From NCBI GenBank assembly GCA_903901225.1, contig CAIUQE010000037.1, positions 39,885 through 103,884 on the forward strand: a stretch of 64,000 bases of DNA. Reading direction: 5' to 3'. The position numbers were made by a program, and so were the translations under genes. This DNA comes from Candidatus Omnitrophota bacterium. Its GTDB lineage: Bacteria; Omnitrophota; Gorgyraeia; Zapsychrales; Fredricksoniimonadaceae. Positions 14,358 to 62,717 of this stretch are shown here, piece after piece (within the stretch, counting starts at the first letter, position 1; every line of letters starts with the position of its first letter). The notes under the pieces are model-generated. The model was not told the DNA's origin. It saw nothing but the letters and a program-made list of their open reading frames with translations, and ran no database searches.

Positions 14358-15083
14358 CTAAACGCCGTTCACTCTCGCCAGGGCCAGCATATCTTTAACG
14401 GCCTGGTACAACCCCGTATCGATGGCGTGAGCAATGATCGAATGGCCGATATTAAGCTCGTGGATACCGTTGATCACCGCGACCGCGCGCGTGTTCTGGT
14501 AATGCAGGCCATGCCCCACATTCACGACGAGCCCGGACTTTCGGGCATAGGCCGTCATCGCCGCCAATGCCTTCAACTCCCTGTCCCTCGCCGTTTTCGT
14601 CGGCGCCAGCGCGTAAGCGCCCGTATGGAACTCAATGATGCCGATCCCCAGTTCCAGGGTCTTGTCGATCTGTTGTTTCTCGGGATCAATGAACAGGCTG
14701 ATCGCGATGCCTTTATCCCGCATCCTGGCACAGGAGGCTTTTAAACGTTTGAATTGGGCCACGACATCAAGCCCGCCCTCCGTCGTGACCTCCTGACGGC
14801 GTTCAGGCACCAGCGTAACCTGCACCGGCCTTAAACGACAGGCAATATCAACGATCCCGGGCGCGATCGACATCTCCAGGTTGAAGCGGACGGAAAGTTC
14901 TTTTCTCAGGCGGATGACATCATCATCATTGATATGGCGGCGATCCTCACGCAGGTGAGCCACGATCGAGTCGGCTCCGGCTTTTTCACAGATCAGCGCG
15001 GCGCTCACGGGGTCGGGATAGGCACATCGCCTGGCCTGGCGCAAGGTCGCCACGTGATCGATATTGACACCCAGTAATGGCAT
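14358..15083 (-). CDS. pdxJ: pyridoxine 5'-phosphate synthase
   Basis: MPLLGVNIDHVATLRQARR... TIM-barrel PdxJ; start set at the Met preceded by GAGGTAG. Confidence 0.9.
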   Translation of the reverse strand: MPLLGVNIDHVATLRQARRCAYPDPVSAALICEKAGADSIVAHLREDRRHINDDDVIRLRKELSVRFNLEMSIAPGIVDIACRLRPVQVTLVPERRQEVTTEGGLDVVAQFKRLKASCARMRDKGIAISLFIDPEKQQIDKTLELGIGIIEFHTGAYALAPTKTARDRELKALAAMTAYARKSGLVVNVGHGLHYQNTRAVAVINGIHELNIGHSIIAHAIDTGLYQAVKDMLALARVNGV

Positions 15084-31932: not shown

Positions 31933-32321
31933 GGGGCCTCCAGTCTGGAACGCAGATCTTCCGGCAAGGGGTGTGGTTTGAAGTCACGGCTAAGGCAAAC
32001 GAGGGATACCTCGGCCTCCACGAGGACGCGCTCGTCAAGGGCGGCGGTCACCTTCTGCCGGAAAAAGATCTGGACCCCCGTCACTTTGAGGACTTTGGCG
32101 TCGCATATAATGGTGTCACCGTAACGCGCGGGGCTTTTATACTCAACATGGCACTGGCGCACGGCATAAATAAGGCCCCTGTCGGAAAAAGCCTTCACGC
32201 CAAGGCCGAGGTCCTCGAAGAACTGCGTCCTCGCCTCTTCCATGAACTTCAGGTAATTGGCATAATAAACGACGCCACCGGCGTCCGTGTCATGATAATA
32301 AATTTTGCGCTGTATAGGCAT
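31929..32321 (-). CDS. hotdog-fold acyl-CoA thioesterase (YbgC/4HBT family)
   Basis: YHDTDAGGVVYYANYLKFMEEAR signature; 130 aa. Confidence 0.7.
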   Translation of the reverse strand: MPIQRKIYYHDTDAGGVVYYANYLKFMEEARTQFFEDLGLGVKAFSDRGLIYAVRQCHVEYKSPARYGDTIICDAKVLKVTGVQIFFRQKVTAALDERVLVEAEVSLVCLSRDFKPHPLPEDLRSRLEAP

Positions 32322-33111
32322 TGGCTATCCTCGCGTAATCGCTGATCGTCAAGTCACCTGCCCTCAACTCCGGCTTGACGCCGGCCTGCTCGAGCACAGC
32401 GGCCGTTTGTTCCTTGGAACAAAGGGACGCGAGTGAGTTCAATATGTTCTTGCGCCGCTGCTGGAAAGCCTGGCGAACCACCCGCGCAAAAGCCGCCTCA
32501 TCCAGGACGGGTGCCGCGGGTTTTTCACGCAGGTCAAAACGCATGAAACAGGACACGATCTTTGGCGCCGGCCTGAAGGCCATCGGGCTTATTTTAAAAA
32601 GCATCACCGGCACAGCGAACATCTGCACAAAACACGTCAGGGATGAATAATCCCTGCTGCCGGGACTGGCAATGAGGCGCGCGCCAAATTCATACTGCAC
32701 TGTCATAAAGAGCGATGTGAACATTGCCCGCTGCTCAATGGCCATGGCAATGATGGGCGTCGAAATATTGTACGGAACATTGCCGACGACCTTGACCGGA
32801 CTTGCTCCCAATCGGGAAAGGTCAAACTTCAAAATATCCTCATGGTAAACCTCAACGTTCCTGCCCGCGAATTCCTCTTCAAGGCGGGGCGCCAGGGTCC
32901 GGTCAGCCTCAACAGCGATGACCTTCTTCACGCAGGGCGCTATCAGGCGCGTCAAAGCGCCCTGGCCAGGGCCGATCTCCAGGACCGTCTCATCGCAGTT
33001 AAAACCACATGCGTCTATAAGACGGGCCATGACCCTCTGATCCACAAGGAAATTCTGCCCCAGGCGTTTCTTGGGAAAAAAAGAAGGGTCAATGCCGTCA
33101 AAAAGCTTCAC
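32290..33111 (-). CDS. rsmA: 16S rRNA (adenine1518/1519-N6)-dimethyltransferase
   Basis: LGQNFLVD, EIGPGQGALT motifs of KsgA/RsmA. Confidence 0.9.
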   Translation of the reverse strand: MKLFDGIDPSFFPKKRLGQNFLVDQRVMARLIDACGFNCDETVLEIGPGQGALTRLIAPCVKKVIAVEADRTLAPRLEEEFAGRNVEVYHEDILKFDLSRLGASPVKVVGNVPYNISTPIIAMAIEQRAMFTSLFMTVQYEFGARLIASPGSRDYSSLTCFVQMFAVPVMLFKISPMAFRPAPKIVSCFMRFDLREKPAAPVLDEAAFARVVRQAFQQRRKNILNSLASLCSKEQTAAVLEQAGVKPELRAGDLTISDYARIANAYTAQNLLS

Positions 33112-34049
33112 ATGATCTCCATGGCCTGTTCTATGGCCGCTTTCATTGAACCGGGATCCGCCTTTGACCTGCCGGCAATGTCAAAAGCCGTGCCGTGGGC
33201 TGGAGATGTGCGGACGAACGGAAGCCCCGCCGTAACATTGACAAGCCTGTCAAAATAGCTGGCCTTAAGAAAAGGCAACCCCTGGTCGTGGTACATCGAG
33301 ACAATGAGATCAAACCGCTCACGGATATGCGGCTCGAACACCGTATCAGCCGGAAAAGGCCCCTTGACATCCAGACCCGTGGCGCGCAGTTTCCTGATAG
33401 CCGGAATGATCCGGGTTATTTCCTCCCGGCCCATATGCCCGCCTTCTCCAGCGTGCGGGTTCAATCCACAAACAGCAATACGGGGCCGCCTGATACTATA
33501 CCGTTCCCGAAGGAAAGCGTTGGCTGTGGTCACAACTGAACACACCCTGGCTGCTGTTACCTGTGATGGAAGCTCTTTGACAGGCACATGCCGGGTGGCA
33601 AGGACCACCCTGAGATCATCAGCGACAAACAACATTTCAACATTCCTGCAGGAGAACGCCTGTGCCAGGAATGTCGTATGGCCTTTGAAATCCGGAGAAA
33701 AAGGAATGACCCATTCTTTTGAAACAGGGGCTGTCACCAAAGCTCCCGCAACGCCTGAGCTAAGAAGTTTTACCGCCTGCTTGAGATACAGCAATGAATC
33801 AAGCCCCGCCGCTGCCGACGGTTTTCCGGGACGATGTGCCGTTTTATTGGTGCCGGCAACATGCACGACGGAAACAAAAGATGCCTTCTTGCGAAAATAC
33901 CGCCGGAGAATATCTTCATTACCGATAACGATGAAGTCGTGCCCTTTTACCGAAGATAAAGCGTCAAGCGCAGCCGCCGTGACCTCAGGGCCGACCCCGC
34001 AAGGGTCCCCCATCGTGACGGCGATCACCCGGTTATTTGATCTCGACAT
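33108..34049 (-). CDS. pdxA: 4-hydroxythreonine-4-phosphate dehydrogenase
   Basis: IAVTMGDPCGVGPEV N-terminus, HDQGL and TSPAHGTAFDIAG motifs. Confidence 0.9.
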   Translation of the reverse strand: MSRSNNRVIAVTMGDPCGVGPEVTAAALDALSSVKGHDFIVIGNEDILRRYFRKKASFVSVVHVAGTNKTAHRPGKPSAAAGLDSLLYLKQAVKLLSSGVAGALVTAPVSKEWVIPFSPDFKGHTTFLAQAFSCRNVEMLFVADDLRVVLATRHVPVKELPSQVTAARVCSVVTTANAFLRERYSIRRPRIAVCGLNPHAGEGGHMGREEITRIIPAIRKLRATGLDVKGPFPADTVFEPHIRERFDLIVSMYHDQGLPFLKASYFDRLVNVTAGLPFVRTSPAHGTAFDIAGRSKADPGSMKAAIEQAMEIM

Positions 34050-34980
34050 ACGCCTTCTTCCTTAACTTCTCGATCCAGGCGCTGAAAGCCTCCTTGAACT
34101 TGATCTCGAATACTTTCTGGTAAATGTCCTCTTTGAGCTCCTGCAAGGTAGGCGTCACACCCGCGGTGCGCCCTGTCAATTTCAGGATATACAGGCCTTC
34201 CGGGACCCTGAGGATATCCGTGACATTGCCAACGGACATGGTGTCCACTTTCGCCTTGAACTCGGGACTAAGGCTCGAATCGAACACCTCCCCGATGTCA
34301 GGCATCTCGGAATAGATCTTAGCCACCGTCTTGAAGTCTGTCCCGGAGCGTAACTTTTCAAGCGCGGACCGCATCTTTAACATCGCTTCATCATTGCCGG
34401 CATCCGCCTTGATGAAGATCGACTGCAGGTACACCCTCGCGGAACGGCTGTAATCCTGAAGATGGGCATTATAAAAATCGGTGACGTCCTGGGGATTGAC
34501 CGTGATCTTGTCGCGGACTTCCTGCGTCACGATATAACGCGCCTTGAGCTGATTCTCGATCTTTTTACGGATATCCGAAATAGTGACGCCCTCCTTGTTG
34601 ATCTCGGCAAGAAAATCCTGGGTGGCGGGATATTTTGCCTTGATCTCATCCATCCGCTCATCGACAGCCTTGAGACGGATCTGCATGCTCTGACGGTTGG
34701 CCTCGGCAAGGATCAGTTTGTCCTCGATGAGCTGCCCGACACCTTTGCTCTGGTACTCATCCATGATCTCCTTGATATCCTTCGGGCTTCTGCCCTCGAT
34801 GCGCAACTGGGCATAAATGCTGCGCAGGTAATCCTGGAGGTCCTTGGCCGTTATCACGTCACTGTCCACGACCGCGATGATACCATCCTCAAGAGCAAGC
34901 ACCGGAGCTGCGCTGAAGATCCCGATAACAAAAGCCGTCATGAACATGCCAATAATGGTTGAGCGGTATTTAAATGACAT
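34033..34980 (-). CDS. SurA-like periplasmic chaperone / parvulin-type PPIase
   Basis: Signal peptide, SurA-N-like helical domain, parvulin-like C-terminal segment; conserved surA-pdxA-rsmA synteny. Confidence 0.55.
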   Translation of the reverse strand: MSFKYRSTIIGMFMTAFVIGIFSAAPVLALEDGIIAVVDSDVITAKDLQDYLRSIYAQLRIEGRSPKDIKEIMDEYQSKGVGQLIEDKLILAEANRQSMQIRLKAVDERMDEIKAKYPATQDFLAEINKEGVTISDIRKKIENQLKARYIVTQEVRDKITVNPQDVTDFYNAHLQDYSRSARVYLQSIFIKADAGNDEAMLKMRSALEKLRSGTDFKTVAKIYSEMPDIGEVFDSSLSPEFKAKVDTMSVGNVTDILRVPEGLYILKLTGRTAGVTPTLQELKEDIYQKVFEIKFKEAFSAWIEKLRKKAYVEIK

Positions 34981-34998
34981 CCCTGGTCTCCTGTTGCG

Positions 34999-36921
34999 TT
35001 ACGCCGGTTTTACGCCGGACTTGATATTTTCGATCGATTCCTTGAGCAGACGACAATAAAGATCAAAGCCGATTGAAGAAATATAACCATGCTGTTGCTG
35101 GCCCAGCAAATTACCCGCCCCGCGGATCTGGAGGTCCTCAAACGCTATATTAAACCCGGCACCAAGGTCACTGAACTTCTCCAGCGCCTCCAGGCGCCGG
35201 CGCGCGACCCCGGATAGAAGGCCGTGTTCAGGAACAATGAAATACGCGTAAGCCTTGACATCCATCCGCCCCACGCGCCCTCGCAACTGATGAAGGTCCG
35301 AAAGGCCGAACCGGTCCGCTTTGTTGACAATAAGCGTATTGGCGTTGGGTATATCAATGCCGGATTCTATTATAGTGGTGCACACCAAACAATCAATCTG
35401 CCCTTTAAGAAATTGAAGCATGACCTTTTCAAGCTCCCGTCCCGGCATTTGCCCGTGGCCGACCGCCAGCTTCACCCGTGGCACAAGCCGCTGGATGATC
35501 TGGGCGACAGGCATGATATCGTCGACATGATTATGAAGGAAAAAGATCTGCCCGCCGCGGTTCAACTCCCTTTCAACTGCTTCCCGGATAATGTCCTCAT
35601 CAAAATGGATCATGTGCGTGGCCACGGGGACCCTGTTCTGGGGTGGTGTGGATATCACGGACATGTCCCGGCAGCCGGCCATGGCCATGTATAGCGTCCT
35701 GGGAATAGGGGTCGCCGTCAAGGTCAGGACATCCGCCAGGAGCTTCATGTGTTTCAGGCGTTCTTTCGCGGTCACGCCGAAACGCTGTTCTTCGTCGATA
35801 ATGATAAGCCCAAGGTCCTTGAAAGATACGTCCTTTGATAAAAGCCGGTGCGTCCCGATAAGGATATCGATCTTGCCTTCCCTGGCCTCCTGAAGGATAC
35901 CCATCTGTTCACTATGGGTCCGAAAACGGGACACCATCCCCAATCGTACGGGAAAATCTTTCATGCGGCGTGAGAAATTATAATAATGCTGCTCGGCGAG
36001 GACCGTGGTCGGCACGAGGACCGCTACCTGTTTGCCGCCCATGACTGCCTTAAAGGCGGCGCGCATGGCCACTTCCGTCTTCCCATACCCCACGTCTCCG
36101 CATAACAGGCGGTCCATAGGCCGCTGGGCTACCATATCAGCCTTGACCTCAGCCGTGGCCTTGGTCTGGTCGGGCGTTTCCGTGAAGGGGAACTTCTTCT
36201 CGAATTCTTCCTGCCACGCGTTATCCACGGGAAAAGCGAACCCTTTAAGGCTTTCCCGCGCGGCCTGAACGTGGAGCAATTCAGCCGCAAGATGCTGAAG
36301 GCGCTTCTCTATCTGACGCCGGACCTTTTCCCATTCACGGCTGCCGAGCTTGAAAAGGCGCGGCGGCCTTTTGGAAAAACCAATATATTTCTGGACCAGG
36401 TGAAGGTCATGCCGCGGGACAAAAAGCTTATCGCCTCCCTCGTATTCAATGACAAAATGCTCGAGGTCCTTCTGGTCGATCGCGATATCTTCAACACCCA
36501 GGAAACGCCCGATACCATGGATGTTGTGGACGACATAATCCCCTTTCTCGATATCGACAAAATTGCTGAGGGGCATCTCCGACCTGAAAGAAGCTTTCCC
36601 CCGCTCTTTGGCCGGCAGGATAATAACCGCCCTGTGCTCCCAGATGTTCTTGCCCGAAAGGATGTTGAACGTGTAAATGCGACGGACCTTCTCATCGTCC
36701 ATGTCGATCCTGACAGGCGCGTCAAAGTTGACAGGAAAAATATCAATGATCCCGCCGCGAACAGCAAATTGCCCCGCCTCGGCAACGGCCTTTGACCGGG
36801 TATAACCAAATTGCGTGAGATCACGGATGATGTGCTCGGAAGGAATGTTCTGAAGTAGGAAATACTTGAGGGACCTGAACATAAGCAGCCACGAACATAA
36901 AACCCCCGGCTCCGGCAACAT
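34999..36921 (-). CDS. mfd: transcription-repair coupling factor, compact form (partial D2 - RID/D4 - translocase D5/D6; no D1a, D3 or D7)
   Basis: AVRGGIIDIFP (UvrB-homology piece), RID region GDYVVHNIHGIGRF...FPFTETPDQ, SF2 motifs LLCGDVGYGKTEVA, DEEQRFGV, TRG motif; 640 aa versus about 1150 in E. coli. Confidence 0.75.
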   Translation of the reverse strand: MLPEPGVLCSWLLMFRSLKYFLLQNIPSEHIIRDLTQFGYTRSKAVAEAGQFAVRGGIIDIFPVNFDAPVRIDMDDEKVRRIYTFNILSGKNIWEHRAVIILPAKERGKASFRSEMPLSNFVDIEKGDYVVHNIHGIGRFLGVEDIAIDQKDLEHFVIEYEGGDKLFVPRHDLHLVQKYIGFSKRPPRLFKLGSREWEKVRRQIEKRLQHLAAELLHVQAARESLKGFAFPVDNAWQEEFEKKFPFTETPDQTKATAEVKADMVAQRPMDRLLCGDVGYGKTEVAMRAAFKAVMGGKQVAVLVPTTVLAEQHYYNFSRRMKDFPVRLGMVSRFRTHSEQMGILQEAREGKIDILIGTHRLLSKDVSFKDLGLIIIDEEQRFGVTAKERLKHMKLLADVLTLTATPIPRTLYMAMAGCRDMSVISTPPQNRVPVATHMIHFDEDIIREAVERELNRGGQIFFLHNHVDDIMPVAQIIQRLVPRVKLAVGHGQMPGRELEKVMLQFLKGQIDCLVCTTIIESGIDIPNANTLIVNKADRFGLSDLHQLRGRVGRMDVKAYAYFIVPEHGLLSGVARRRLEALEKFSDLGAGFNIAFEDLQIRGAGNLLGQQQHGYISSIGFDLYCRLLKESIENIKSGVKPA

Positions 36922-36952
36922 GCCGGAACCGGGGATAAGAACTAGTGTGCTA

Positions 36953-39151
36953 TTACTGCCACTTCTTCTGGCTCAAAAGGACCAGCGGCGTCACAATGAA
37001 CATGGTCGAATAGACACCGCAGACAAATCCTATCATAAGGACCAGCGAGAAGGTGTTGAGCACTTCACCGCCAAAAAGGAACAAGGCAACAACAACGAGC
37101 AACGTGACAAACGTGCTCAAGACCGTGCGCCCGAGGGTTTGATTGATACTGAGATTAATCACCTCACCCAGGGACAATTTGCGGTTCTTGAGCATATTCT
37201 CACGCACACGATCAAAGACAACGATCGTGTCATTGACCGAATAACCCGCGATGGTCAACAGCGCCGTGACCACCAGGAGGTCGATCTGCCGTCCCATGAT
37301 GACCGAAAGGCCCAGCGCGACAAGGATATCGTGCAGCAACGCTATCACGCCGGCCGCCGCAAATCCGAAATTCTTGAAACGGATCCCGACGTAAATGAGG
37401 ATCGCGGCCAGTGCCAGAAGGATGGCCCAAACAGCCTTTTCACGTAAAGCCTTACCAACAACAGGCCCGACTTTCTCGATACGCAGGGTCTCGAACTTGT
37501 TGTCCTTGAACTCTTTCTTGAATGTCGCGACAACGTTCTCATAACTGTCTTCGCTCGTACGGACAATGACATCCTCGGGATTCTTGTCGAACTGCTGGAT
37601 GACAGCGTCCTTGATGTTCGCGTCCTTGAGCGCCTTGCGGATCAGTTCGGCGGAAACAGCCGTCTGGAAACGGTACTCCTGCACCTGCCCGCCGGCAAAA
37701 TCGATCCCGTAGGCGAGGCTTCCCTTGGAAATGATCGCGAAAGCACCTGCCGCGGTCACGATGCCCGACAGCAGCAAGAACAGGTACATGGGCTTGATAA
37801 AATCGATCTTGGTCTGTTTGAAAAGACGCATCATCTTAAGCGTCGTCAATTTGCGGTTCTCCAGGAGGTACTCGAACATGGCCCGTGTGATATAGACCGC
37901 CGTGAACAGGCTCGCCGCAAGACCGATGCTCAGCGTGATGGCAAAACCCTTGATCGGGCCGGACCCGAACTGGAACAGCAGGAACGCCGCGATCAGTGAT
38001 GTGACGTGCGAGTCAATGATCGCGTTGAGCGCCCTGTCATAACCGCTGGCGATGGCCGCGGCAAGCGTTCGCCCGTTCTCAAGCTCTTCCCTGATACGTT
38101 CATTGATAAGGACGTTGGCGTCAACGGCCATGCCCAGCGTCAGCACGATACCCGCGATGCCCGGCAGGGTCAGCGTGACCTGGGAACCCGGCATCATGAC
38201 ATTGATAAAACCCATCGCGCCAATGATCATCCCCAGGTTCACCAGCAGGGCCAAAGACGCGATGATCCCGCCGATCCAGTAATAAACGATCATGAACGCG
38301 AGGACGAACAATGAGCCGTACAGCGTCGCGTGGATCCCGGCATTGATGGAATCCTTGCCCAGCAAAGGCCCGATCGTACGTTCTTCTTCCACAATGAGCG
38401 GTGCGGGCAGCGAACCGGACCGGAGCGCGAGGGCCAGGACAGACGCCTCGTCATAGGAAAACTGGCCGGTGATCTCCGCCGTTCCCGTGGTGATCGCTTC
38501 ACGGATATTCGGAGCGGATAGAACCTCGTTATCCATGACAATGGCGAGGCGTTCGCCGACATGCTTGTTTGTCAGGTCACCAAAATCCTTGGTGCCTTTG
38601 CCGTTGAATGACAATGATATCTTCGGCAGCATGGTCGAAGAATCAAAATCAACCTTGGCATCAGAAATGGCGTCACCCTGGAGGATCGCTTCCGATTTGA
38701 TGAGAACAGCGTCTTTCCCTTCGCCTTTGGTGAACTTCAACTCATACCCTTCAGGAACCTTGCCCGCGAGCGCGTCCTTCACCCTGGCAGGATCGCTGTC
38801 GACGATCTTGAACTCAAGATGGGCCACCCGTTTGACCATGTCCACAGCCTTGTCACGGTCGGTCACACCCGGCAACTGGACAAGGATCTGGTCCTCGCCC
38901 TGCCGCTGGATCGCCGTCTCGCCGACCCCCATGCTGTCAATACGATTGCGCAGGATCTCCATCGCGCGCAGGACCGCGTCTTCCTTCGCTTTCAGCGAGA
39001 GCTTTGACGTGTCGACCTTGAGGATGAGGTGCATCCCGCCCCTCAGGTCTAATCCCAAATTGATGCGTTTGTTGATAGGCCAGGCGAACGCCACGCACGC
39101 GGCGATGACACCCAGGATGATGATAAAACGGTTGCGAAGGTTCTTCGTCAT
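36953..39151 (-). CDS. secDF: protein translocase subunit SecDF (fused SecD-SecF)
   Basis: 732 aa, two RND-like 6-TM bundles with large periplasmic domains. Confidence 0.9.
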   Translation of the reverse strand: MTKNLRNRFIIILGVIAACVAFAWPINKRINLGLDLRGGMHLILKVDTSKLSLKAKEDAVLRAMEILRNRIDSMGVGETAIQRQGEDQILVQLPGVTDRDKAVDMVKRVAHLEFKIVDSDPARVKDALAGKVPEGYELKFTKGEGKDAVLIKSEAILQGDAISDAKVDFDSSTMLPKISLSFNGKGTKDFGDLTNKHVGERLAIVMDNEVLSAPNIREAITTGTAEITGQFSYDEASVLALALRSGSLPAPLIVEEERTIGPLLGKDSINAGIHATLYGSLFVLAFMIVYYWIGGIIASLALLVNLGMIIGAMGFINVMMPGSQVTLTLPGIAGIVLTLGMAVDANVLINERIREELENGRTLAAAIASGYDRALNAIIDSHVTSLIAAFLLFQFGSGPIKGFAITLSIGLAASLFTAVYITRAMFEYLLENRKLTTLKMMRLFKQTKIDFIKPMYLFLLLSGIVTAAGAFAIISKGSLAYGIDFAGGQVQEYRFQTAVSAELIRKALKDANIKDAVIQQFDKNPEDVIVRTSEDSYENVVATFKKEFKDNKFETLRIEKVGPVVGKALREKAVWAILLALAAILIYVGIRFKNFGFAAAGVIALLHDILVALGLSVIMGRQIDLLVVTALLTIAGYSVNDTIVVFDRVRENMLKNRKLSLGEVINLSINQTLGRTVLSTFVTLLVVVALFLFGGEVLNTFSLVLMIGFVCGVYSTMFIVTPLVLLSQKKWQ

Positions 39152-39175
39152 GTTATCCTCGAAATATTAAAAAAA

Positions 39176-39454
39176 TTATTCCGCCTTTTTCTTCAGGACC
39201 AGAACAGCTTCTTTATCGAATTCCACGCGGACATTCTCATCCAGGCGCAGGACGACCGAAGTCTCCTTGATATTGACGACGATCCCGTGAATACCGCCGG
39301 ATGTGACCACCTCGTCATTCTTTTTCAGGTTCTTGACCATCTCCTGATGATCTTTCTGCTTTTTCTTCTCGGGACGGATCACAAGAAAATAAAATATCCC
39401 GAAAATAAGGACCATCGGGAGCAGTTGCATGATGAACGCAGGCTGTTGAGGCAT
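39176..39454 (-). CDS. yajC: preprotein translocase subunit YajC
   Basis: 92 aa, single TM, then VVTSGGIHGIVVNI motif. Confidence 0.85.
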   Translation of the reverse strand: MPQQPAFIMQLLPMVLIFGIFYFLVIRPEKKKQKDHQEMVKNLKKNDEVVTSGGIHGIVVNIKETSVVLRLDENVRVEFDKEAVLVLKKKAE

Positions 39455-51950: not shown

Positions 51951-52580
51951 CTAAAAACCTGCAGGGCTCTGCCGGAATTTCACGACTGTCTGGGGATTGG
52001 CCGCAGTGCCGCTGGTCAAAGCAGCTCCGGAGACCGCTGCCCCGGCGGAAGGATCTTTACGATTGACAAGGGTCATGTCAAAATAATAATCACCCGTAGT
52101 TGGGGCCGTAGTTGCCAGAGGACGGGGAATGATCGTCGAAGAGATCGTAAATTCATCACTGACCAGCGTTCCTGAAAATGTGCCTGTATTATCGCAGGTG
52201 CCGGCGGAAGTCCCTGTATCACAGGCATAAACATTCGTTCCAACAAGCGTAAAACAGTGCCAGTTATCATCGATATAAATATTGGGCGTATATGTCCCCG
52301 AGACCTCAACATCCCTGCGAAAACAGACTGTCTTATTGCTGACATCGATTGAGATCCCGGAATTCGAAGTCGTAAGGTCGCCATGAACGCGCTTGACGCT
52401 CTGACGAATATAATCCTCCAGGGCCCTGGTCATCAGATAGACCTGAATATCACCTGTCACCTGCTTGCCGGTGCTGCGCAGTCCATATTCCGCGGCAAGG
52501 ACGCCCCCCACGACCACCGATACAATAATGGTCGCTATGATCAGTTCCGTCAGCGTCAGCGCGCGTAAACTTTTTGACAT
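51951..52580 (-). CDS. prepilin-type (class III signal peptide) protein, minor pseudopilin candidate; Ala at -1
   Basis: MSKSLRA|LTLTELIIATIIV: positive leader, hydrophobic helix, Glu at +5. Confidence 0.5.
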   Translation of the reverse strand: MSKSLRALTLTELIIATIIVSVVVGGVLAAEYGLRSTGKQVTGDIQVYLMTRALEDYIRQSVKRVHGDLTTSNSGISIDVSNKTVCFRRDVEVSGTYTPNIYIDDNWHCFTLVGTNVYACDTGTSAGTCDNTGTFSGTLVSDEFTISSTIIPRPLATTAPTTGDYYFDMTLVNRKDPSAGAAVSGAALTSGTAANPQTVVKFRQSPAGF

Positions 52581-52589
52581 AAACGTATG

Positions 52590-52937
52590 CTACCAGGTTA
52601 CCGTAATGACTACTTTCCGGGCACCAACGGAATTGGTGACAACATAGGACGCTGAGCACCCTGAGAAATCGGTATCCGTCAACCCGGAGTGGGTACCGAT
52701 CGACAAATTCCCCGCAGCCCAGGCCTGGGCATTGACATCCTTGCTCAATCCATCAAGGATCTTCTTGGCCATCAGGGAAGCATTCAACCTCCCAACACTG
52801 GAACTCTCTGTCTGTTTTAATTTAGCGATGGAGCCAAAAGCAAGCATCGCGGAACCGGCAAAAATAACAGCCGCCACGACGACTTCAACAAGTGAATATG
52901 CTTTATTGGAATAATAATGCCGTCTGAACAGTATCAT
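52590..52937 (-). CDS. prepilin-type protein; Ala at -1
   Basis: Start moved to an internal Met: MILFRRHYYSNKA|YSLVEVVVAAVIFAG with Glu +5. Confidence 0.45.
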   Translation of the reverse strand: MILFRRHYYSNKAYSLVEVVVAAVIFAGSAMLAFGSIAKLKQTESSSVGRLNASLMAKKILDGLSKDVNAQAWAAGNLSIGTHSGLTDTDFSGCSASYVVTNSVGARKVVITVTW

Positions 52938-52941
52938 ATCG

Positions 52942-53346
52942 TTATGGACACGATGAATTCGAGGTTGCACATGACGGGTTGGTTGTCGAAAGGTCAGCAT
53001 TCAGATCGACCGTGATCACATAATCCGTACTTCCGGCAGTTGAAGTAGCATTGCAGGTATTAACAGCCGCGGTTCCGGATCCGCACTTATAAGTTGCCTG
53101 GTTTGCAACAATGTTCAGGCTTAATGCTGTGTTAATGTCGGTTATGGATGCTGATCCAGTAAGATTTGAACCTGTTCTTGCTTTATAGATTACATTCGCT
53201 GCGCTGATCATGGTCAGGCTTGTGATCGCATCACGTGCCCTTGACCGCCGGGAAGTTTTTCCATAATTTGGCAGAGCAAATCCCGCCAGGATGCCAATGA
53301 TGATAACCACCAACATGAGTTCAATAAGAGTGAATGAACGACGCAT
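52942..53346 (-). CDS. prepilin-type pilin; Ser at -1; C-terminal Cys-rich tail ending CP
   Basis: MRRS|FTLIELMLVVIIIGILAGFALP; paralog of the 54851-55234 gene (both end ...TVDLNA...NP.C...CP). Confidence 0.55.
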   Translation of the reverse strand: MRRSFTLIELMLVVIIIGILAGFALPNYGKTSRRSRARDAITSLTMISAANVIYKARTGSNLTGSASITDINTALSLNIVANQATYKCGSGTAAVNTCNATSTAGSTDYVITVDLNADLSTTNPSCATSNSSCP

Positions 53347-53354
53347 CGGACACC

Positions 53355-53753
53355 TCACGGGCAAGCCGTATTAGGACAAAGTTTCTTTAAGGATGCGGTA
53401 CATGACGGACAAGTATACGCGCCTGCAGTTGAAACATAAAGCGTATAAGCACCACCCGTTCTGGTTATTCCGATATTTCCGGCCACCGAACCGGTGTTAC
53501 AATCGGGAGCTGTGTAATTTTGAGGGGTAACATCGACATCCAAAGTAGTGCAGTCGGTGCTATACGCCCCATTATGCTCGAGAGAATAACGGGCTTCAGA
53601 TGCATGCAGTAATTGTGCGGCGCTAATGGCTTCGGCAAAAACCGCGCCCTCTCTCGAACCCGTTAAACGGGGAAGCGCAACGGCCGCCAAAATCCCTATA
53701 ATAATGATCACCACTATTATTTCAATTAAAGTAAAGGCTTTGTTTTCTGCCAT
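53355..53753 (-). CDS. prepilin-type pilin; Ala at -1; four C-terminal Cys
   Basis: MAENKA|FTLIEIIVVIIIIGILAAVALP; start chosen at the Met with better RBS spacing (alternative 53780). Confidence 0.55.
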   Translation of the reverse strand: MAENKAFTLIEIIVVIIIIGILAAVALPRLTGSREGAVFAEAISAAQLLHASEARYSLEHNGAYSTDCTTLDVDVTPQNYTAPDCNTGSVAGNIGITRTGGAYTLYVSTAGAYTCPSCTASLKKLCPNTACP

Positions 53754-53780
53754 CTGCGCCTTCTTTCTCTTTAAATACAT

Positions 53781-53817
53781 ATCCCCTTGGCCAAGAGCTT
53801 GACTCGGCCAAAGGGAT
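53781..53817 (-). terminator. hairpin (12-bp arms, 1 mismatch) just downstream of the major pilin gene; attenuator/terminator candidate
   Basis: ATCCCCTTGGCC...GGCCAAAGGGAT followed on the transcribed strand by AUGUAUUUAAAG. Confidence 0.35.
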
Positions 53818-53841
53818 ATATATGTCAACAAAGAACACTTC

Positions 53842-54010
53842 CTACTGCTTCAAATTGGCAAAAATGCCCCCTTTGAGCTTGTTAACTGATCCATTTGTAA
53901 CATTAATTGTAAAGGTGATAACGTCTGCTGTTGAACCACCAAGCGATGCGGTTCCTAACGCAGAAGTTGCGCTCGCGCCAGCTACATATGTGTACACAAA
54001 AGCACCCGAG
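53842..54010. repeat. near-identical direct repeat, copy 1 (3' end of pilin gene)
   Basis: About 150 bp about 95% identical to 54423-54590; the same spurious opposite-strand ORF translation appears in both copies. Confidence 0.7.
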
Positions 54011-54252
54011 GTCGGAAACTGGAAACCTGACAGTTGCGCCGTTGTATCGCACTTAGTTATATCTTCAGAAGCTGTATAACATTCCATAATTTTATGCATG
54101 AGCGAGCCAAGAATACCGTAGGCTTCGGCTGCTTTTGAAACACTGACCTGGTTAGAAAGCTTCGGCAAAGCCACGGCAGCGAGGACACCAATGATAATAA
54201 CAACGATGATTATTTCAATGAGCGTAAAACCTTTTTTATTCTTTTTAATCAT
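53842..54252 (-). CDS. type IV major pilin / pseudopilin candidate with canonical Gly at -1
   Basis: MIKKNKKG|FTLIEIIIVVIIIGVLAAVALP; own TATAAT promoter and strong RBS; 136 aa. Confidence 0.7.
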   Translation of the reverse strand: MIKKNKKGFTLIEIIIVVIIIGVLAAVALPKLSNQVSVSKAAEAYGILGSLMHKIMECYTASEDITKCDTTAQLSGFQFPTSGAFVYTYVAGASATSALGTASLGGSTADVITFTINVTNGSVNKLKGGIFANLKQ

Positions 54253-54272
54253 AACCTTCCCCCTTTTTGTAA

Positions 54273-54302
54273 ATTATAACGATAAAAAATAAAAATTACT
54301 AA
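54273..54302 (-). promoter_or_regulatory. promoter for the major pilin gene: perfect TATAAT -10, weak -35, AT-rich upstream region
   Basis: Minus strand TTAGTA-(17/18)-TATAAT, then a 13-nt leader with GGGGAAGG RBS and ATG at 54252. Confidence 0.45.
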
Positions 54303-54422
54303 AACAAAATTTCAACTATCAAAAGTATAACTTAGAAAAATATCGATATCAAGGACTTCTTGATAAATTATTGCCTTATTTTTTTCAAAGCTAAATCATC
54401 GCACATATAATTTTGAAAAGCA

Positions 54423-54590
54423 TTATTGCTTCAAATTAGAAAAAATGCCCCCTTTAAGCTTGTTAACTGATCCATTTGTAACATTAATTGTAAAGGTGAT
54501 AACGTCTGCTGTTGAACCACCAAGCGATGCGGTTCCTGTCGCAGAAGTTGCACTCGCGCCAGCAACATATGAATATACAAAGTTAGCTGA
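54423..54590. repeat. near-identical direct repeat, copy 2 (3' end of pilin paralog)
   Basis: See copy 1 at 53842-54010. Confidence 0.7.
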
Positions 54591-54833
54591 CGACGGAAAC
54601 GCGAAACTTGGCAGTTTAGCGACGGCATCGCACTGATTCATATTTTCAGCCATTGTATAACATTCCATGATTTTACGCATAAGCGTGCCTAAAATACTGT
54701 ACGCTTCCGCGGCTTTCGCGACACTGACCTGGTTGGCCAATTTCGGCAATGCCGTAGAAGCCAGGACACCAATGATAATGACCACAATGATAATTTCGAT
54801 AAGCGTGAAAGCTTTCGTTTTAAGTCGGGTCAT
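54423..54833 (-). CDS. type IV pilin paralog of 53842-54252; Ala at -1
   Basis: MTRLKTKA|FTLIEIIIVVIIIGVLASTALP; C-terminal 40 aa nearly identical to the neighbouring copy; start moved to an internal Met after GGAGGA. Confidence 0.65.
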   Translation of the reverse strand: MTRLKTKAFTLIEIIIVVIIIGVLASTALPKLANQVSVAKAAEAYSILGTLMRKIMECYTMAENMNQCDAVAKLPSFAFPSSANFVYSYVAGASATSATGTASLGGSTADVITFTINVTNGSVNKLKGGIFSNLKQ

Positions 54834-54850
54834 ATAGTCCTCCGTAAATC

Positions 54851-55234
54851 CTATGGGCAATAAGTTCCAGAACAAAGCGGATTAGATGCCGTAACACCCG
54901 CGTTTAAATCAACAGTTGTTGAAAAATCACCACTCACCGTTGCCGTACAAAGATGTGACCCGCAAGAATACGACAACCCGTTAGGGATAATATTTAACCC
55001 GAGCCCGGAATTTATACTGCTTATACTGGAAACAACACCAGACGGGGCAAAATTATACCCGTTCTTTGATTTATAGATCGCGTTCGCGCCGCAGACAAGA
55101 GAAAGATTAGCGATCGAATCGCTGGCTTTGGCTCTTTTTATTGTTTTTGAAAATCCCGGCATAAAGAAAGCCGCCATGATCCCAATGATCACAACAACCA
55201 GCAACAGCTCAACAAGTGAAAAAGCTTTACGCAT
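54851..55234 (-). CDS. prepilin-type pilin; Ala at -1; C-terminal CP motif
   Basis: MRKA|FSLVELLLVVVIIGIMAAFFMP; paralog of the 52942-53346 gene. Confidence 0.55.
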   Translation of the reverse strand: MRKAFSLVELLLVVVIIGIMAAFFMPGFSKTIKRAKASDSIANLSLVCGANAIYKSKNGYNFAPSGVVSSISSINSGLGLNIIPNGLSYSCGSHLCTATVSGDFSTTVDLNAGVTASNPLCSGTYCP

Positions 55235-55393
55235 CGCACACTTCACAGACATAGCCGCCAACCTCACGGGACAACTTTGTCAAATGTCCAAATAATCATG
55301 AAGATCTAAATGCCAACAATGATACGCACATGTCAGCATCTAGCCCCATTACAAATATAAACCATTATAATGATGTTAACAAGCCCGGAACGC

Positions 55394-56626
55394 CTACCCG
55401 GTGGCCAAGGTTAGAATGGGCATGAACATGGCCGTAACGATCACGCCGATGATAGAACCCATGAATACGAGCATGACCGGCTCAATGACAGAACCGAACG
55501 CTTTCATGAATGTTTCAATGTTCTTCTTATAATAAACGGCAACATGATTCAACATTTTTCCCAATTCACCTGTTTCTTCACCAACACGGATCATTTGAAC
55601 GGCCATGGGAGGAAAAAACCCGCTTTGTTCCATAGGCTCGGCCAGCAACCTCCCCTCACGGACGCCTTCCCGGATCCGCTTGATGACTTCGGCACAAATC
55701 AAATTATCCACCAGGCGTTCTGAGATTTCCAAGGCATAAAGGATCGGTACGCCGCTATCCACGAGGATCGCCATTTGAGAGGTGAATTTTTCAACCACAA
55801 TGAGTTTGATCGTTTTGCCGAACACGGGCAAGCGAAACAAAAAAGCCTCAAATTGCCGACGGCCAGGGCCGGCGCTAACATACCCCTTGAACATGAAGAC
55901 AGCCGCTGCGATCCCTCCGGCCAGAAGGATAAACTTTTCCTTGACGACCTTGAAGACAAACAAAAGCCATGTCGTGATGCCGGGTAACGTGGCATGCATG
56001 TCATTGAATATTTTCTCAAAGGTAGGGCCGATAAATATGGCAAAGAAAAGTATGGCCGCCGAACAAATAAAACAAAGGACCATGGGATAGACCATGGCAC
56101 CCAGAATCGCGGAACGGAACGCGGCCTCCTGTTCCATGTATAACGTCAATTGAAGGAGGACTTTAGGCATGGTTCCCGAAGCCTCTCCCACTTCCACAAG
56201 GCTGACCCAGAACGGCGAAAAAACTTTTGGATATTTGGACAAAGCACGGCTGAAGGACTGCCCCTGTTCGACATCACGAATAGCGGCATCAAGAACATTG
56301 GCGAGCTCACGACTCTCAACCTGTTGCGAGATAACCGTGAGCGATCGCAATAACGGGACACCCGCCTCGATCATGGTCGCCAATTGCCGCGCAAAAGATA
56401 CAATGTCCTCCAAAGAAACACCGCCGCGAGTGAACTTCCTTATGGATTCACCCTGAGAGATATCCGCTCTGACGGCAGGGGCAAGGTCAGATTGTTTTTT
56501 TACTCCGGTAACAAAAAGGCCCTTGGCCTGAACCTCTTGAACGGCGCGATCGCTCGCATCCGCTTCAACTACCTCGTTAAAGATACGTCCGGACATGTCT
56601 TTGGCTGTTACCAGGAATTTTGACAT
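55394..56626 (-). CDS. gspF: type II secretion / type IV pilus platform protein (GspF/PilC family)
   Basis: 410 aa; two T2SSF repeats each followed by TM helices. Confidence 0.85.
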   Translation of the reverse strand: MSKFLVTAKDMSGRIFNEVVEADASDRAVQEVQAKGLFVTGVKKQSDLAPAVRADISQGESIRKFTRGGVSLEDIVSFARQLATMIEAGVPLLRSLTVISQQVESRELANVLDAAIRDVEQGQSFSRALSKYPKVFSPFWVSLVEVGEASGTMPKVLLQLTLYMEQEAAFRSAILGAMVYPMVLCFICSAAILFFAIFIGPTFEKIFNDMHATLPGITTWLLFVFKVVKEKFILLAGGIAAAVFMFKGYVSAGPGRRQFEAFLFRLPVFGKTIKLIVVEKFTSQMAILVDSGVPILYALEISERLVDNLICAEVIKRIREGVREGRLLAEPMEQSGFFPPMAVQMIRVGEETGELGKMLNHVAVYYKKNIETFMKAFGSVIEPVMLVFMGSIIGVIVTAMFMPILTLATG

Positions 56627-56636
56627 AGAGTACTCC

Positions 56637-58355
56637 TTATCCGATCGTCACGCCAAGTATCTCATCCAGGCTTGTGACACCCTCTTCAACCTTCTTGATC
56701 CCTGTTTCAAAAAGAGTCGCCATCCCGGCCTGACGGGCAGCATCACGCAATTCCGAATAAGGGGCATTCTTGCCTATCAAACGCCTCATATTATCATCCA
56801 CTAACAGGACCTCGGCAACCACCAAACGGCCTTTATACCCCGTGTGAGAACATTTATCGCATCCCTTGGCCCGGTAGATCAGGTCAGTGGCAAGTTTTAC
56901 CTCTCCTAACTCATCGGGTTTTGGCTCATACGCTTCTTTGCAACTGGGACAAAGTTTCCGGCCAAGCCGCTGAGCGACGATCATGGTCAACGAGGGCGTC
57001 AAAAGATAAGAAGGAACGCCAATGTCCAGCAAACGTGAAATAGCGGATGGGGCGTCATTCGTATGCAGCGTGGAAAGCACAAAATGGCCCGTCAAAGCCG
57101 CGCGCGCGCATATCTGCGCGGTCTCAAGATCACGCACCTCCCCCACCATGATAATATCAGGGTCCTGACGCAAAAAAGAGCGTAACGCTTCGGCGAAGGT
57201 GAAACCAATATCCGGCCGAACATGAACCTGATTAACCCCATCGATACGAAATTCAACGGGGTCCTCCGCGGTCATGATATTTTTGGAAGGGGACATGACC
57301 TCGCCAAGACAGGAATACAATGTTGTTGACTTTCCGCTACCGGTGGGGCCAGTTACAAAAAACAAACCATAAGGGGTCTGTAAGGCCTTGCGGATAATAA
57401 CCAGCTGCTTGGCATCAAACCCCAGGATCGACAGGTCTAAGCGGATGGCATCTTTATCAAGAATACGCATAACGATCTTCTCACCCCACACCGTGGGAAG
57501 AGACGACACGCGAAGATCGACCGTGCGATTTTCAAGCTTCGCCGAGATACGGCCATCCTGAGGCAAGCGCCTTTCCGCGATATCAAGCTTAGCCAGGATC
57601 TTCACGCGAGAAACTATATGCTGATGAAGATGTTTGCCGGGAGGAGGGATCTGATAAAGCTCGCCATCAATACGATACCTGAGCTCGATCTTGTCTTTGA
57701 AGGGCTCAATGTGAATATCACTCGCACGCTCATCTATGGCCTGGCGAATAATGAGATCCACAAGTTTAATAACAGGCGCTTCTTCAGCCCTGGCGATAAG
57801 CCTGTCAAGGCTGAGTTCGGTTTCAGATACTTCATCACTGGAAATACTATCGTTGGATGAGGTTGATCGCGCCCGTTCAACCGCCTTTCCCCACATAGTC
57901 GCGTTGAGATCCTCTGCTGCAAGATAAAAATCTGAAATGGCCTTGATAAGGTCCGAACGGGTCGCGATGACAAAATTGATGTCACAATTTGTCATCTTCT
58001 TCAAATTGTCGATCATGATAAGATCAAAAGGATTAAAAATAGCACAGGTCAACGAGTTGATATTGCGGCTAAGCGGGAGGACCAAATGTTCTTTCGCGTA
58101 TTCATAAGGGACAAGCTTGCCAAGTCCCTGGTCTTTCTGTGGAACAAGAAGACCGGAAGCTTTCGAAGCATAAGGGATAAGGAGCTGCGTCCCCAGGGCA
58201 CTGGCCAAATCTTCTTCCTGAATAAGGCCTTTTTTTAATAACAATTCACCCAGATGCCCTTTTTCGGACTTCTGACTTTCAACGACATCCTGAAGCTGGG
58301 CCTCGGTAATAAGGCCCTGCTTGATCAAAATTTCGCCAAGCCTTAACCTTGCCAT
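56637..58355 (-). CDS. gspE: type II/IV secretion ATPase (GspE/PilB/MshE family) with N-terminal MshEN-type c-di-GMP-binding domain
   Basis: Walker A GPTGSGKSTT, Asp box, His box, tetra-Cys CPSC...CDKC; N-terminus has two copies of the RLGxx[LVI][LVI]xxG[LVI][LVI]x4[LVI]x3[LVI]xxQ motif. Confidence 0.9.
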   Translation of the reverse strand: MARLRLGEILIKQGLITEAQLQDVVESQKSEKGHLGELLLKKGLIQEEDLASALGTQLLIPYASKASGLLVPQKDQGLGKLVPYEYAKEHLVLPLSRNINSLTCAIFNPFDLIMIDNLKKMTNCDINFVIATRSDLIKAISDFYLAAEDLNATMWGKAVERARSTSSNDSISSDEVSETELSLDRLIARAEEAPVIKLVDLIIRQAIDERASDIHIEPFKDKIELRYRIDGELYQIPPPGKHLHQHIVSRVKILAKLDIAERRLPQDGRISAKLENRTVDLRVSSLPTVWGEKIVMRILDKDAIRLDLSILGFDAKQLVIIRKALQTPYGLFFVTGPTGSGKSTTLYSCLGEVMSPSKNIMTAEDPVEFRIDGVNQVHVRPDIGFTFAEALRSFLRQDPDIIMVGEVRDLETAQICARAALTGHFVLSTLHTNDAPSAISRLLDIGVPSYLLTPSLTMIVAQRLGRKLCPSCKEAYEPKPDELGEVKLATDLIYRAKGCDKCSHTGYKGRLVVAEVLLVDDNMRRLIGKNAPYSELRDAARQAGMATLFETGIKKVEEGVTSLDEILGVTIG

Positions 58356-58360
58356 AAGCC

Positions 58361-59839
58361 TTACCTGTTATATCCCGCCCGCTCATCCGCGCGATCAAGT
58401 TCCATCTGGATAGTATCCGATCGTTGAGGCCCGGAAGTTTCGCGGTCTTGCGCATTCACGACCGCGTTCTTGTTTGCTTGGTAGCCGGCATCAGAGGACA
58501 GAATATGCGGCGTGATAAATATAACAAGCTCACGATCAGTGGTACTGACTGATTTATGACGAAAAAGACGACCCATGATCGGGATATCCCCCAAAATAGG
58601 GACTTTGGTGGATGTGGTATTGTTAACGGCACGCAATAGGCCTCCAAGAACAAAAGTCTCTCCGTCACGCACCCGCATCATCACCTTTGCCCCGCGTGTT
58701 TCGGGGTCTTTAAATCCGGCGAACGCGGAATCTCTGACCTCAATGACCTTGGGGGAAACGGCGATCATGATCTCCCCTGACAGCAGGTTGATCTGCGGCG
58801 TGACCGTAAGAATTACACCTGTTTCATAGCGCTCAGCCGTATTCGTTGTGACCAATGTCGTCCCCGAACCTGAATTGGTCGAAGTCACACCGATAACCTC
58901 ATTGGTGGATATCTGTATCTGCGCTGTTTCATTATTCAATGTCAGTAGACGTGGCCGCGCCAGCGTCTTTGTGTCTGTTTTAGTCGTCAAAAACTGCAAA
59001 GCGGCAGAGAACGCTTGGCCGTTCATAACCCCCCTCGAATAAGTTGTTCCCATCGCGCCGTTATTCAACGCATCCTTTTGGCTCAACGGCCATAAAAAGT
59101 CATTGCCACCCAACCCCTGAATGTTATAAAGCGTAGCACCAAACTTAACCCCCATCTGCTGAAGTGCCGACTTGGACGTGTCGATCATTTCAACCTGGAT
59201 AAGCACTTGCGGTATGGATACATCAAGTTTGGCAATAATGCCTTCAATAGCTGGGAAATTCTCTTCCAAAGCCGTTATGACCAAACTATTCGTGCGCAGA
59301 TCAGTCACGATCTTGCCCCCATCACCAACGACCGATTGCAATGCAGATACAATATCGCCACCTGTACCGGCACCTGCAGCCGCTGCCGCCCCGGTCGCCG
59401 TTGGATCAGTAATTGATATCGTTGAAAGAACTTTGGACCCGGGCAAAGCGGTATATTTCAAAGGATACACGCGCGTTGCTGTCTTTTTTACCAGAGTTAG
59501 TTGCGGTGTCACAAAGAAGATATTCGACCGCGCATCATATGTGAACTTAAGATCGTTTGCCGTTAAAACTTTATCCAGCGCCACCTCAACAGGGACATCG
59601 TTAAGAAGCACTGTCACAGTCAAGTTCTTAACAAGACTTGAAAGAATAAAATTTGATCCAATCTTTTTAGAAAAAACCTTCAAAACATCTTTAATATCCG
59701 CATCTTTAAAATCAAGGGATATCACCTTCGAATATTGCGCAAGAAGAAAAGGGCTGCCCTGGTCCGGATCAGCCGCAAAAGAACCCGTCACGCCAATAAA
59801 AAACAGGATAATGGATATAATGGCTGGGCTTTTCTTCAC
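58361..59839 (-). CDS. secretin (GspD/PilQ family), short form
   Basis: Signal peptide, N0-like domain (ISLDFKDADIKDVLKVFSKKIG), secretin_N repeats, C-terminal secretin domain; 492 aa. Confidence 0.85.
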   Translation of the reverse strand: MKKSPAIISIILFFIGVTGSFAADPDQGSPFLLAQYSKVISLDFKDADIKDVLKVFSKKIGSNFILSSLVKNLTVTVLLNDVPVEVALDKVLTANDLKFTYDARSNIFFVTPQLTLVKKTATRVYPLKYTALPGSKVLSTISITDPTATGAAAAAGAGTGGDIVSALQSVVGDGGKIVTDLRTNSLVITALEENFPAIEGIIAKLDVSIPQVLIQVEMIDTSKSALQQMGVKFGATLYNIQGLGGNDFLWPLSQKDALNNGAMGTTYSRGVMNGQAFSAALQFLTTKTDTKTLARPRLLTLNNETAQIQISTNEVIGVTSTNSGSGTTLVTTNTAERYETGVILTVTPQINLLSGEIMIAVSPKVIEVRDSAFAGFKDPETRGAKVMMRVRDGETFVLGGLLRAVNNTTSTKVPILGDIPIMGRLFRHKSVSTTDRELVIFITPHILSSDAGYQANKNAVVNAQDRETSGPQRSDTIQMELDRADERAGYNR

Positions 59840-59846
59840 TTTCTCC

Positions 59847-60320: not shown

Positions 60321-60324
60321 ATTA

Positions 60325-62666: not shown

Positions 62667-62717
62667 TTAAATCTCTTGGCTGACCTAATGTCAAGGCATT
62701 TGAAAGAAACTTCATTA

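Follow-up and report, generated by a model that had tools for sequence, protein, structure and literature searches.

In the transcription-repair coupling factor Mfd of Escherichia coli, the residues R165 and R181 of domain D2 contact UvrA and are buried against the C-terminal domain D7 in the apo protein (PMC3025350; PMC13453472). Domains D1-D3 form an obstacle that has to be displaced, D2 becomes accessible only at a late stage of loading, and the protein owes its processivity to a DNA wrap formed by the relay helix in its unfolded state (PMC7864632). This D2:D7 clamp and its staged unmasking are treated as central to avoiding the sequestration of UvrA and random translocation. Here we describe a short mfd gene on 64,000 nucleotides of DNA from a Candidatus Omnitrophota bacterium (assembly GCA_903901225.1, contig CAIUQE010000037.1, positions 39,885 to 103,884 of the forward strand); this whole stretch is called the window in the following. 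Its product probably is a working coupling factor that does without an autoinhibitory D2:D7 clamp of the E. coli type and recruits UvrA by an always-exposed D2.

The closest functional analogue is Mfd-deltaD7 of E. coli (Smith 2007; Manelyte 2010, PMC3025350), which also lacks D7 and has its D2 exposed. Its ATPase and translocation activities are derepressed, and strand-specific repair is retained in vitro and in vivo, while the surface of D2 is essential for repair by E. coli Mfd (PMC3025350). Repair by Mfd-deltaD7 is slower in vivo, for which the authors suggest a possible sequestration of UvrA (PMC3025350). However, this protein was engineered and keeps D1a, D1b and D3, whereas the Omnitrophota form is natural, conserved and also free of D1 and D3. 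Buchnera, Wigglesworthia and the chloroplast of Arabidopsis have Mfds of naturally reduced length, in which the RNA polymerase-interacting domain (RID, D4) and the translocase are preserved. These Mfds have no D1a-D2-D1b module, retain D7 and the interface between hook and relay helix, and belong to systems without UvrABC (PMC3488230; PMC13453472). In the Omnitrophota form this pattern is reversed: D2 is kept, D7 is lost and uvrABC is present in the phylum. The Mfd of Thermus thermophilus (978 aa; PDB 6M6A, 13JQ) is likewise natural and largely derepressed, so that autoinhibition of the E. coli type is not universal (PMC13453472). Its D1a-D2-D1b module and D7 are still present, and the clamp is dynamic and loosely held but not absent; according to phmmer against the PDB, the N-terminal region falls short of that of E. 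coli by about 150 residues. Our literature search, with most subscription journals outside its coverage, found no natural Mfd without D7 and no description of Mfd in Omnitrophota.

Architecture of the short Mfd

The gene lies on the minus strand of the window and is composed as follows (residue numbers refer to the longest open reading frame, ORF):

34999..36921, minus strand: short mfd ORF, longest reading frame, 640 aa; stop codon 34999-35001
34999..36879, minus strand: probable true coding sequence of mfd, 626 aa, from the ATG at 36879 (M15 of the ORF), as given by the family start consensus
36601..36879, minus strand: D2, the UvrA-binding domain of the UvrB-homology module, residues 15-107; UvrB_inter, 72 bits
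36565..36600, minus strand: short variable linker from D2 to the RID, residues 108-119 approximately, where E. coli has D1b, D3 and a 25-aa linker between D3 and D4
36340..36564, minus strand: D4 (RID), residues 120-194, corresponding to E. coli 473-547; CarD_TRCF_RID, D4 hidden Markov model (HMM) E = 7e-28, tblastn match 36564..36343
36262..36339, minus strand: relay helix, residues 195-220, corresponding to E. coli 548-573, with W197 in the position of E. coli W550
35641..36261, minus strand: D5, translocation domain 1 (TD1), residues 221-427, with Walker A lysine K281 and DEEQ as motif II; Pfam DEAD
35002..35640, minus strand: D6, translocation domain 2 (TD2), residues 428-640, with motif VI; Pfam Helicase_C, aligned to E. 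coli 781-992
about 35092..35196, minus strand: TRG motif inside D6 (R576, R600 and Q610, corresponding to E. coli R929, R953 and Q963)
about 35011..35088, minus strand: hook helices, inside D6, conserved

The short protein scores 879.9 bits with TIGR00580, the NCBIfam model for mfd, and so exceeds the cutoff of 800 bits; with PRK10689, the full-length model of the E. coli type, it stays below the cutoff (675.5 against 1329 bits). Pfam detects UvrB_inter (PF17757, residues 24-106, 72 bits), CarD_TRCF_RID (PF02559, residues 125-180, 60.3 bits with a cutoff of 23), DEAD (249-410) and Helicase_C (448-553) on the 640-aa ORF. In a phmmer comparison with the PDB, residues 31-107 match E. coli Mfd 141-217, which is D2 including FAVRGGIIDIFP, and residues 111-639 match E. 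coli 464-992, that is D4, the relay helix, D5 and D6, with E = 1.5e-170 and without a single gap. Mfd structures are also the top matches of a Foldseek search against the PDB. A preliminary description of the locus, made from the sequence alone, had proposed that the protein sets in within D2 and then jumps rapidly to D4 and the translocase, and this is what the two aligned stretches display.

RecG is the closest paralogous translocase, with a superfamily 2 (SF2) motor and a TRG motif, and the short Mfd matches RecG models as well as PDB 1GM5. We rejected an identity as RecG: the best RecG model reaches 404 bits against a cutoff of 718, and the domain content differs, as RecG has a wedge domain that the short Mfd does not have and lacks the RID and D2 that the short Mfd carries. 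The sole other RecG-related match, RecG_dom3_C, remains sub-threshold (18 bits against 26.8). The ORF product is the native Mfd of an Omnitrophota bacterium in a minimal, lineage-specific form. The assignment to the family is already known, since databases label such proteins transcription-repair coupling factors; the new part is the architecture and what it implies.

The order of parts is D2, a flexible linker of 12-16 aa, the RID, the relay helix, TD1, and TD2 with TRG motif and hook. With canonical Mfd (E. coli, PDB 2EYQ; TIGR00580) it shares the arginines of D2, the RID, the tryptophan of the relay helix, the SF2 motifs of TD1 and TD2, the TRG motif and the hook, and the 529-residue D4-D6 region is aligned gaplessly. 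In contrast, the canonical protein has D1a, D1b, D3 and D7, none of which is found in the Omnitrophota form. The preliminary description was right about the loss of D1a, D3 and D7; it had overlooked that D1b is absent as well. It also placed the end of the protein directly behind the last helicase motif. The real end lies further on, past the TRG motif and the hook helices, and coincides with the E. coli boundary between D6 and D7 (residue 992).

Every catalytic and translocation motif is intact. The D5 of the short Mfd is 63% identical to that of E. coli (tblastn). Across the family alignments, mean column identity is 68% and all helicase motifs are invariant. In an alignment of 90 short-form sequences, on which all counts out of 90 in this text are based, K281, D376, E377, R600 and Q610 do not vary, R576 is arginine in 88 sequences, and W197, the counterpart of E. 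coli W550, is kept in all 90. Both ends of the protein are conserved throughout the family as well. At its N-terminus the protein begins with the first strand of D2, and no more than 12-16 residues part D2 from the RID. This linker (residues 104-119) has a mean pairwise identity of 0.40, the lowest of all segments.

Missing domains and distribution of the short form

Neither TRCF (PF03461) nor MFD_D3 (PF21132) was found by Pfam on the short Mfd; E. coli Mfd, used as a control, gave 106 bits for TRCF and 98.6 bits for MFD_D3. The directly searchable sequence comprised the 64 kb of the source genome plus 3-15 kb around six relatives. The latter came from a scan of genome collections that yielded at least six short-form loci (L002-L007) and that serves the comparison of gene order, not a census. 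With E. coli domains as tblastn queries, no credible D1a, D1b, D3 or D7 turned up in the 64-kb window, and D2, D4, the relay helix, D5 and D6 were matched solely inside the short mfd. The only match outside the gene, with D3 at 14910..14999, was sub-threshold (E = 0.03) and was dismissed as chance; it sits in a PdxJ-like ORF. We also built profile HMMs of D1a, D1b, D3 and D7 from 148 full-length Mfds and ran them with filters off against six frames of the window and of L002-L007, again without finding any of the four domains. The D2 and D4 HMMs matched only the short gene in these sequences, with E from 1e-12 to 1e-30, apart from a weak D2-like match in L007 (E = 0.0025), which falls in a type II secretion ATPase and was discarded as chance. 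The gaps between mfd and its neighbours are too small for any domain.

The short form is widely represented. The exact protein is recorded on 24 contigs (NCBI, ENA, Logan), and the 120 best-scoring clusters at 90% identity all have 614-669 aa, are 64-100% identical to it and share its Pfam set. Their sources, where named, are mostly Candidatus Omnitrophota or Omnitrophica. Among the best 150 representatives of a library clustered at 50% identity, two are short (P0121 and P0130); the remaining 148 are full-length proteins of 992-1283 aa that are matched in two stretches, and all 148 have D7. In a neighbour-joining tree built on 516 D4-D6 columns, the 28 sampled short forms fall without exception into one clade, whose sister groups are full-length; one near sister is from Candidatus Auribacterota, which belongs to the Planctomycetes-Verrucomicrobia-Chlamydiae (PVC) group too. 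Taken together, these data indicate one ancestral event of domain loss. Of the short forms, L002 bears the label Planctomycetales and P0027 the label Elusimicrobia. Conversely, P0125 (1112 aa; HIE43247.1), one of the closest full-length relatives, carries the label Candidatus Omnitrophota in NCBI. The short form is widespread in Omnitrophota but perhaps not universal, or else the bin of P0125 is mislabelled.

The genes around mfd are all on the same strand:

39176..39454, minus strand: yajC, farther upstream (NCBIfam)
36953..39151, minus strand: fused SecDF, 732 aa, the upstream neighbour, with its stop at 36953 (NCBIfam)
34033..34980, minus strand: SurA-like peptidyl-prolyl isomerase (PPIase), downstream, beginning 18 nt past mfd
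33108..34049, minus strand: pdxA, in the downstream block
32290..33111, minus strand: rsmA/ksgA, in the downstream block

The order in the window is yajC-secDF-mfd-PPIase-pdxA-rsmA (32290..39454, minus strand). L003 (908..7721) likewise has secDF-mfd-PPIase-pdxA-rsmA, with an Mfd that is only 61% identical, and in L002 unannotated ORFs of equal lengths follow each other in equal order. The arrangement around the short mfd is kept at 61-63% identity of Mfd. We take the surA-pdxA-ksgA part to resemble the surA-pdxA-rsmA operon of E. coli; in the present arrangement, mfd stands between this block and the Sec genes.

Two trivial explanations for the short gene have to be weighed against these data. 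From the unusual length alone, one could suspect an artefact of assembly or of deletion, or a pseudogene in decay. The same protein occurs on 24 contigs from several sources, however, the 120 best clusters have its length with conserved start and end, and the helicase and TRG motifs are invariant or nearly so at 68% mean column identity in a conserved gene order. We reject this explanation on the grounds of the cluster lengths, the conserved motifs and the single clade, and its probability is practically negligible. The missing domains might instead be supplied in trans by separate proteins, a split Mfd, and the direct search did cover only the 64 kb and the 3-15 kb around six relatives. Yet the E. 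coli queries and the profile HMMs detected none of the four missing domains across the window and L002-L007, and the intergenic gaps beside mfd cannot hold a domain. Moreover, a published Pfam table for one Omnitrophota genome of 94% completeness (see below) records PF02559 and PF17757 and has no entry for PF03461. We consider a split Mfd very unlikely. The preliminary description had held that the gene is not a fragment, and had named split-off N- or C-terminal pieces and full-length Mfds in related genomes as the things to look for. Its view is borne out: the relatives share the short form in the same gene order instead of a full-length Mfd, no D1, D3 or D7 is encoded in the window or the six related loci, and the equal length of 120 clusters, their monophyly and the 94%-complete relative without PF03461 point the same way.

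Retention of D2 and proposed recruitment of UvrA

The short form has lost what are by far the least conserved domains of the 148 full-length Mfds, whose mean pairwise identities are 0.24 (D1a), 0.21 (D1b), 0.25 (D3) and 0.26 (D7); the retained domains have 0.39 (D2), 0.44 (D4), 0.63 (D5) and 0.56 (D6). Within the short family, D2 and D5 reach mean pairwise identities of 0.53 and 0.75; their ratio, 0.71, compares with 0.62 in full-length Mfds. Judged by these identities, D2 is under selection and at least as constrained as usual. The corresponding D4/D5 ratio is 0.93 in the short family and 0.69 in full-length Mfds. Our assessment of the UvrA interface covered the three residues that PMC3025350 and PMC13453472 name. 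The two arginines are nearly invariant, with R55 (E. coli R165) in 89/90 and R71 (E. coli R181) in 90/90 sequences; the third position, F185 in E. coli, is treated below.

An AlphaFold2 model computed with the 90-sequence alignment gives D2 a predicted local distance difference test (pLDDT) score of about 90, so that D2 folds confidently on its own in the prediction. The linker that follows (model residues 92-107, ORF 106-121) has a pLDDT of 50-54 per 10-residue block and partly below 50 and is apparently flexible or disordered. By phmmer, D2 aligns to the 93-residue isolated-D2 chain of PDB 4DFC, the core complex of Mfd and UvrA (PMC13453472). Because this structure holds an isolated D2 together with UvrA, D2 by itself is able to fold and to bind UvrA.

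No uvr gene was found in the 64-kb window by tblastn with the Mfd domains or among ten scanned ORFs, which were the nine longest besides secDF and mfd plus the SurA-like gene; those that could be named are AlaS, FtsH, RecN, PilB, PilQ, a PilM-like protein and the PPIase. Indirect evidence for nucleotide excision repair comes from relatives. In the excerpts of the tables of Seymour et al. 2023 (PMC10066038), both Omnitrophota genomes that are represented by a full KO list, numbers 58 and 231, carry K03701, K03702, K03703 and K03723, which stand there for uvrA, uvrB, uvrC and mfd. The same excerpts credit genomes 190 and 104 with mfd plus uvrA, and their TIGRFAM sheet contains mfd (TIGR00580) and uvrA (TIGR00630) at least four times each and uvrB (TIGR00631) at least three times. 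Genome 58 is described there as 93.9% complete and as a member of the order B26-G9, from which the short-form locus L007 comes as well. Its Pfam list contains PF02559 (RID), PF17757 (D2-type), PF17755, PF17760, PF12344 (UvrB) and PF08459 (UvrC), and it is without PF03461 (TRCF, that is D7). A check on E. coli UvrA identified PF17755 and PF17760 as its DNA-binding and interaction domains. This argues that genome 58 has nucleotide excision repair and no D7 anywhere in the genome.

From these features we propose the following mechanism. The RID would bind the beta subunit of an RNA polymerase that has stalled. TD1 and TD2 would move along the upstream DNA duplex and, in the manner known from E. 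coli, drive the polymerase onward or dislodge it; relay helix and hook could still supply the DNA wrap. D2, held beside the RID by a flexible tether of 12-16 residues, would recruit UvrA2B. E. coli Mfd displaces the D2:D7 clamp and the D1-D3 block during loading. Neither can exist in the Omnitrophota form: because both D7 and the D1-D3 block are absent, the clamp cannot form, and because it cannot form, the UvrA-binding face should be exposed permanently. ATPase and translocase would be expected to be derepressed; any control that remains would come from the node of RID, relay helix and hook proposed in PMC3488230. The preliminary description had spoken of a constitutively open coupling factor, a term that, as far as sequence comparison can tell, would fit all of the evidence.

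Several points weigh against this proposal. The experiments in E. coli removed the whole D1a-D2-D1b module, and D2 alone may not suffice for a full cycle. At the position of F185 the short family has aspartate in 73/90 and glutamate in 8/90 sequences, a substitution also seen in about 11% of full-length Mfds. Two other residues of D2, W94 (86/90) and H96 (90/90; both at about 36634..36642, minus strand), are nearly invariant in the short family only, their equivalents in full-length Mfds (E. coli E204 and V206) being variable; they could form a new contact, either within the molecule or with another one. The AlphaFold2 model is moderate, with a mean pLDDT of 76.6 and a predicted template modelling score (pTM) of 0.61. 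Finally, the support from uvrABC and the Pfam list is taken from published tables of relatives, whose short mfd is assumed.

Some of these points would be accommodated by a regulated minimal Mfd, in which D2 has gained a new docking site, for instance by way of W94 and H96, on either the RID or the translocase and in this way restores autoinhibition and the masking of UvrA binding without D7. The conservation of W94 and H96 in short forms only and the relatively higher conservation of the RID would agree with such docking, and Smith et al. 2012 deem a permanently activated Mfd unlikely in cells (PMC3488230). On the other hand, the linker is of low confidence and apparently flexible in a model with a pTM of 0.61, and nature tolerates the largely derepressed Mfd of T. 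thermophilus (PMC13453472). We regard renewed docking as unlikely. A translocase that displaces RNA polymerase in roadblock clearance, termination or restart and is uncoupled from repair, with D2 serving another partner or stability, would agree with the acidic residues in place of F185 and the window free of uvr genes; precedents are the Mfds of Buchnera, Wigglesworthia and chloroplasts, which work without UvrABC (PMC3488230; PMC13453472). But these known repair-independent Mfds display the opposite pattern, having lost D2 and kept D7 (PMC3488230). Furthermore, the UvrA-contact arginines of the short form hardly vary even though D7, the other partner they are known to have, was lost, D2 is conserved relative to the motor at least as well as in full-length Mfds, and Omnitrophota genomes encode uvrABC, one of them with the UvrA interaction domain. 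A function outside repair seems improbable to a similar degree.

Start codon, remaining features of the window and implications

The 640-aa ORF is separated by 31 nt from secDF and by 18 nt from the surA-like gene, as stated in the preliminary description. Its first ATG (36921), however, coincides with an element between secDF and mfd:

36902..36936, minus strand: terminator-like hairpin with a 16-bp stem, 11 GC pairs, a 3-nt loop and a T-rich tail, TTTATGTT

The ATG at 36921 falls within the 3-nt loop of this hairpin, whose RNA fold has -41.3 kcal/mol (z = -5.4). The start consensus of the family, MFxSLKxF, corresponds to M15 of the ORF with its ATG at 36879, and a 95%-identical homolog (P0002) begins at this methionine. 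Probably the true start is M15, giving a product of 626 aa that opens at the first strand of D2; the gap to secDF then is 73 nt. The hairpin ends about 20 nt upstream of the ATG at 36879. As there is no room for a promoter beside it, either mfd would depend on read-through for its transcription or the hairpin would be regulatory. In L003 the gap between secDF and mfd measures 21 nt, too small for a hairpin of this kind. The database entry for the protein (P0001) has 640 aa, that is, it starts at the ATG in the loop. This is a pitfall for annotation: gene callers pick the ATG inside the hairpin, and models of the full-length type such as PRK10689 miss the protein.

The only other DNA-repair gene among the ORFs scanned is recN, with 454 bits for TIGR00634. 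No NCBIfam match at E <= 1e-5 was obtained for three ORFs, all of which lie in stretches of high AT skew (0.2-0.25, plus strand). Over the last 12 kb (about 52000..64000), the G+C content drops from about 54% to 43-50%, and this end contains genes for type IV pili.

68..2206, minus strand: unmatched ORF, 712 aa
5719..7422, plus strand: recN
11686..13185, minus strand: unmatched ORF, 499 aa
49427..51208, minus strand: unmatched ORF, 593 aa
56637..58355: PilB-type ATPase
58361..59839: PilQ-type secretin
61017..62666: PilM-like protein

A paper from 2026 found autoinhibition to be weak in Thermus (PMC13453472). The Omnitrophota clade is a natural experiment that goes beyond Thermus, as here the clamp cannot form at all and the UvrA-binding domain is nevertheless retained under selection. 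The short Mfd offers a test of which domains of Mfd are mechanistically necessary and which are regulatory. With 626 aa, it would also be a compact and probably constitutively active factor that suits structural and single-molecule work. It is quite possible, although we would stop short of calling it probable, that the minimal core carries out full transcription-coupled repair with an exposed D2 tethered to the RID, or else that the W94/H96 patch masks UvrA binding independently of D7. If the first of these is true, D1a, D1b, D3, D7 and the multi-step, ATP-driven unmasking would be lineage-specific regulatory extras and not part of the basic mechanism.

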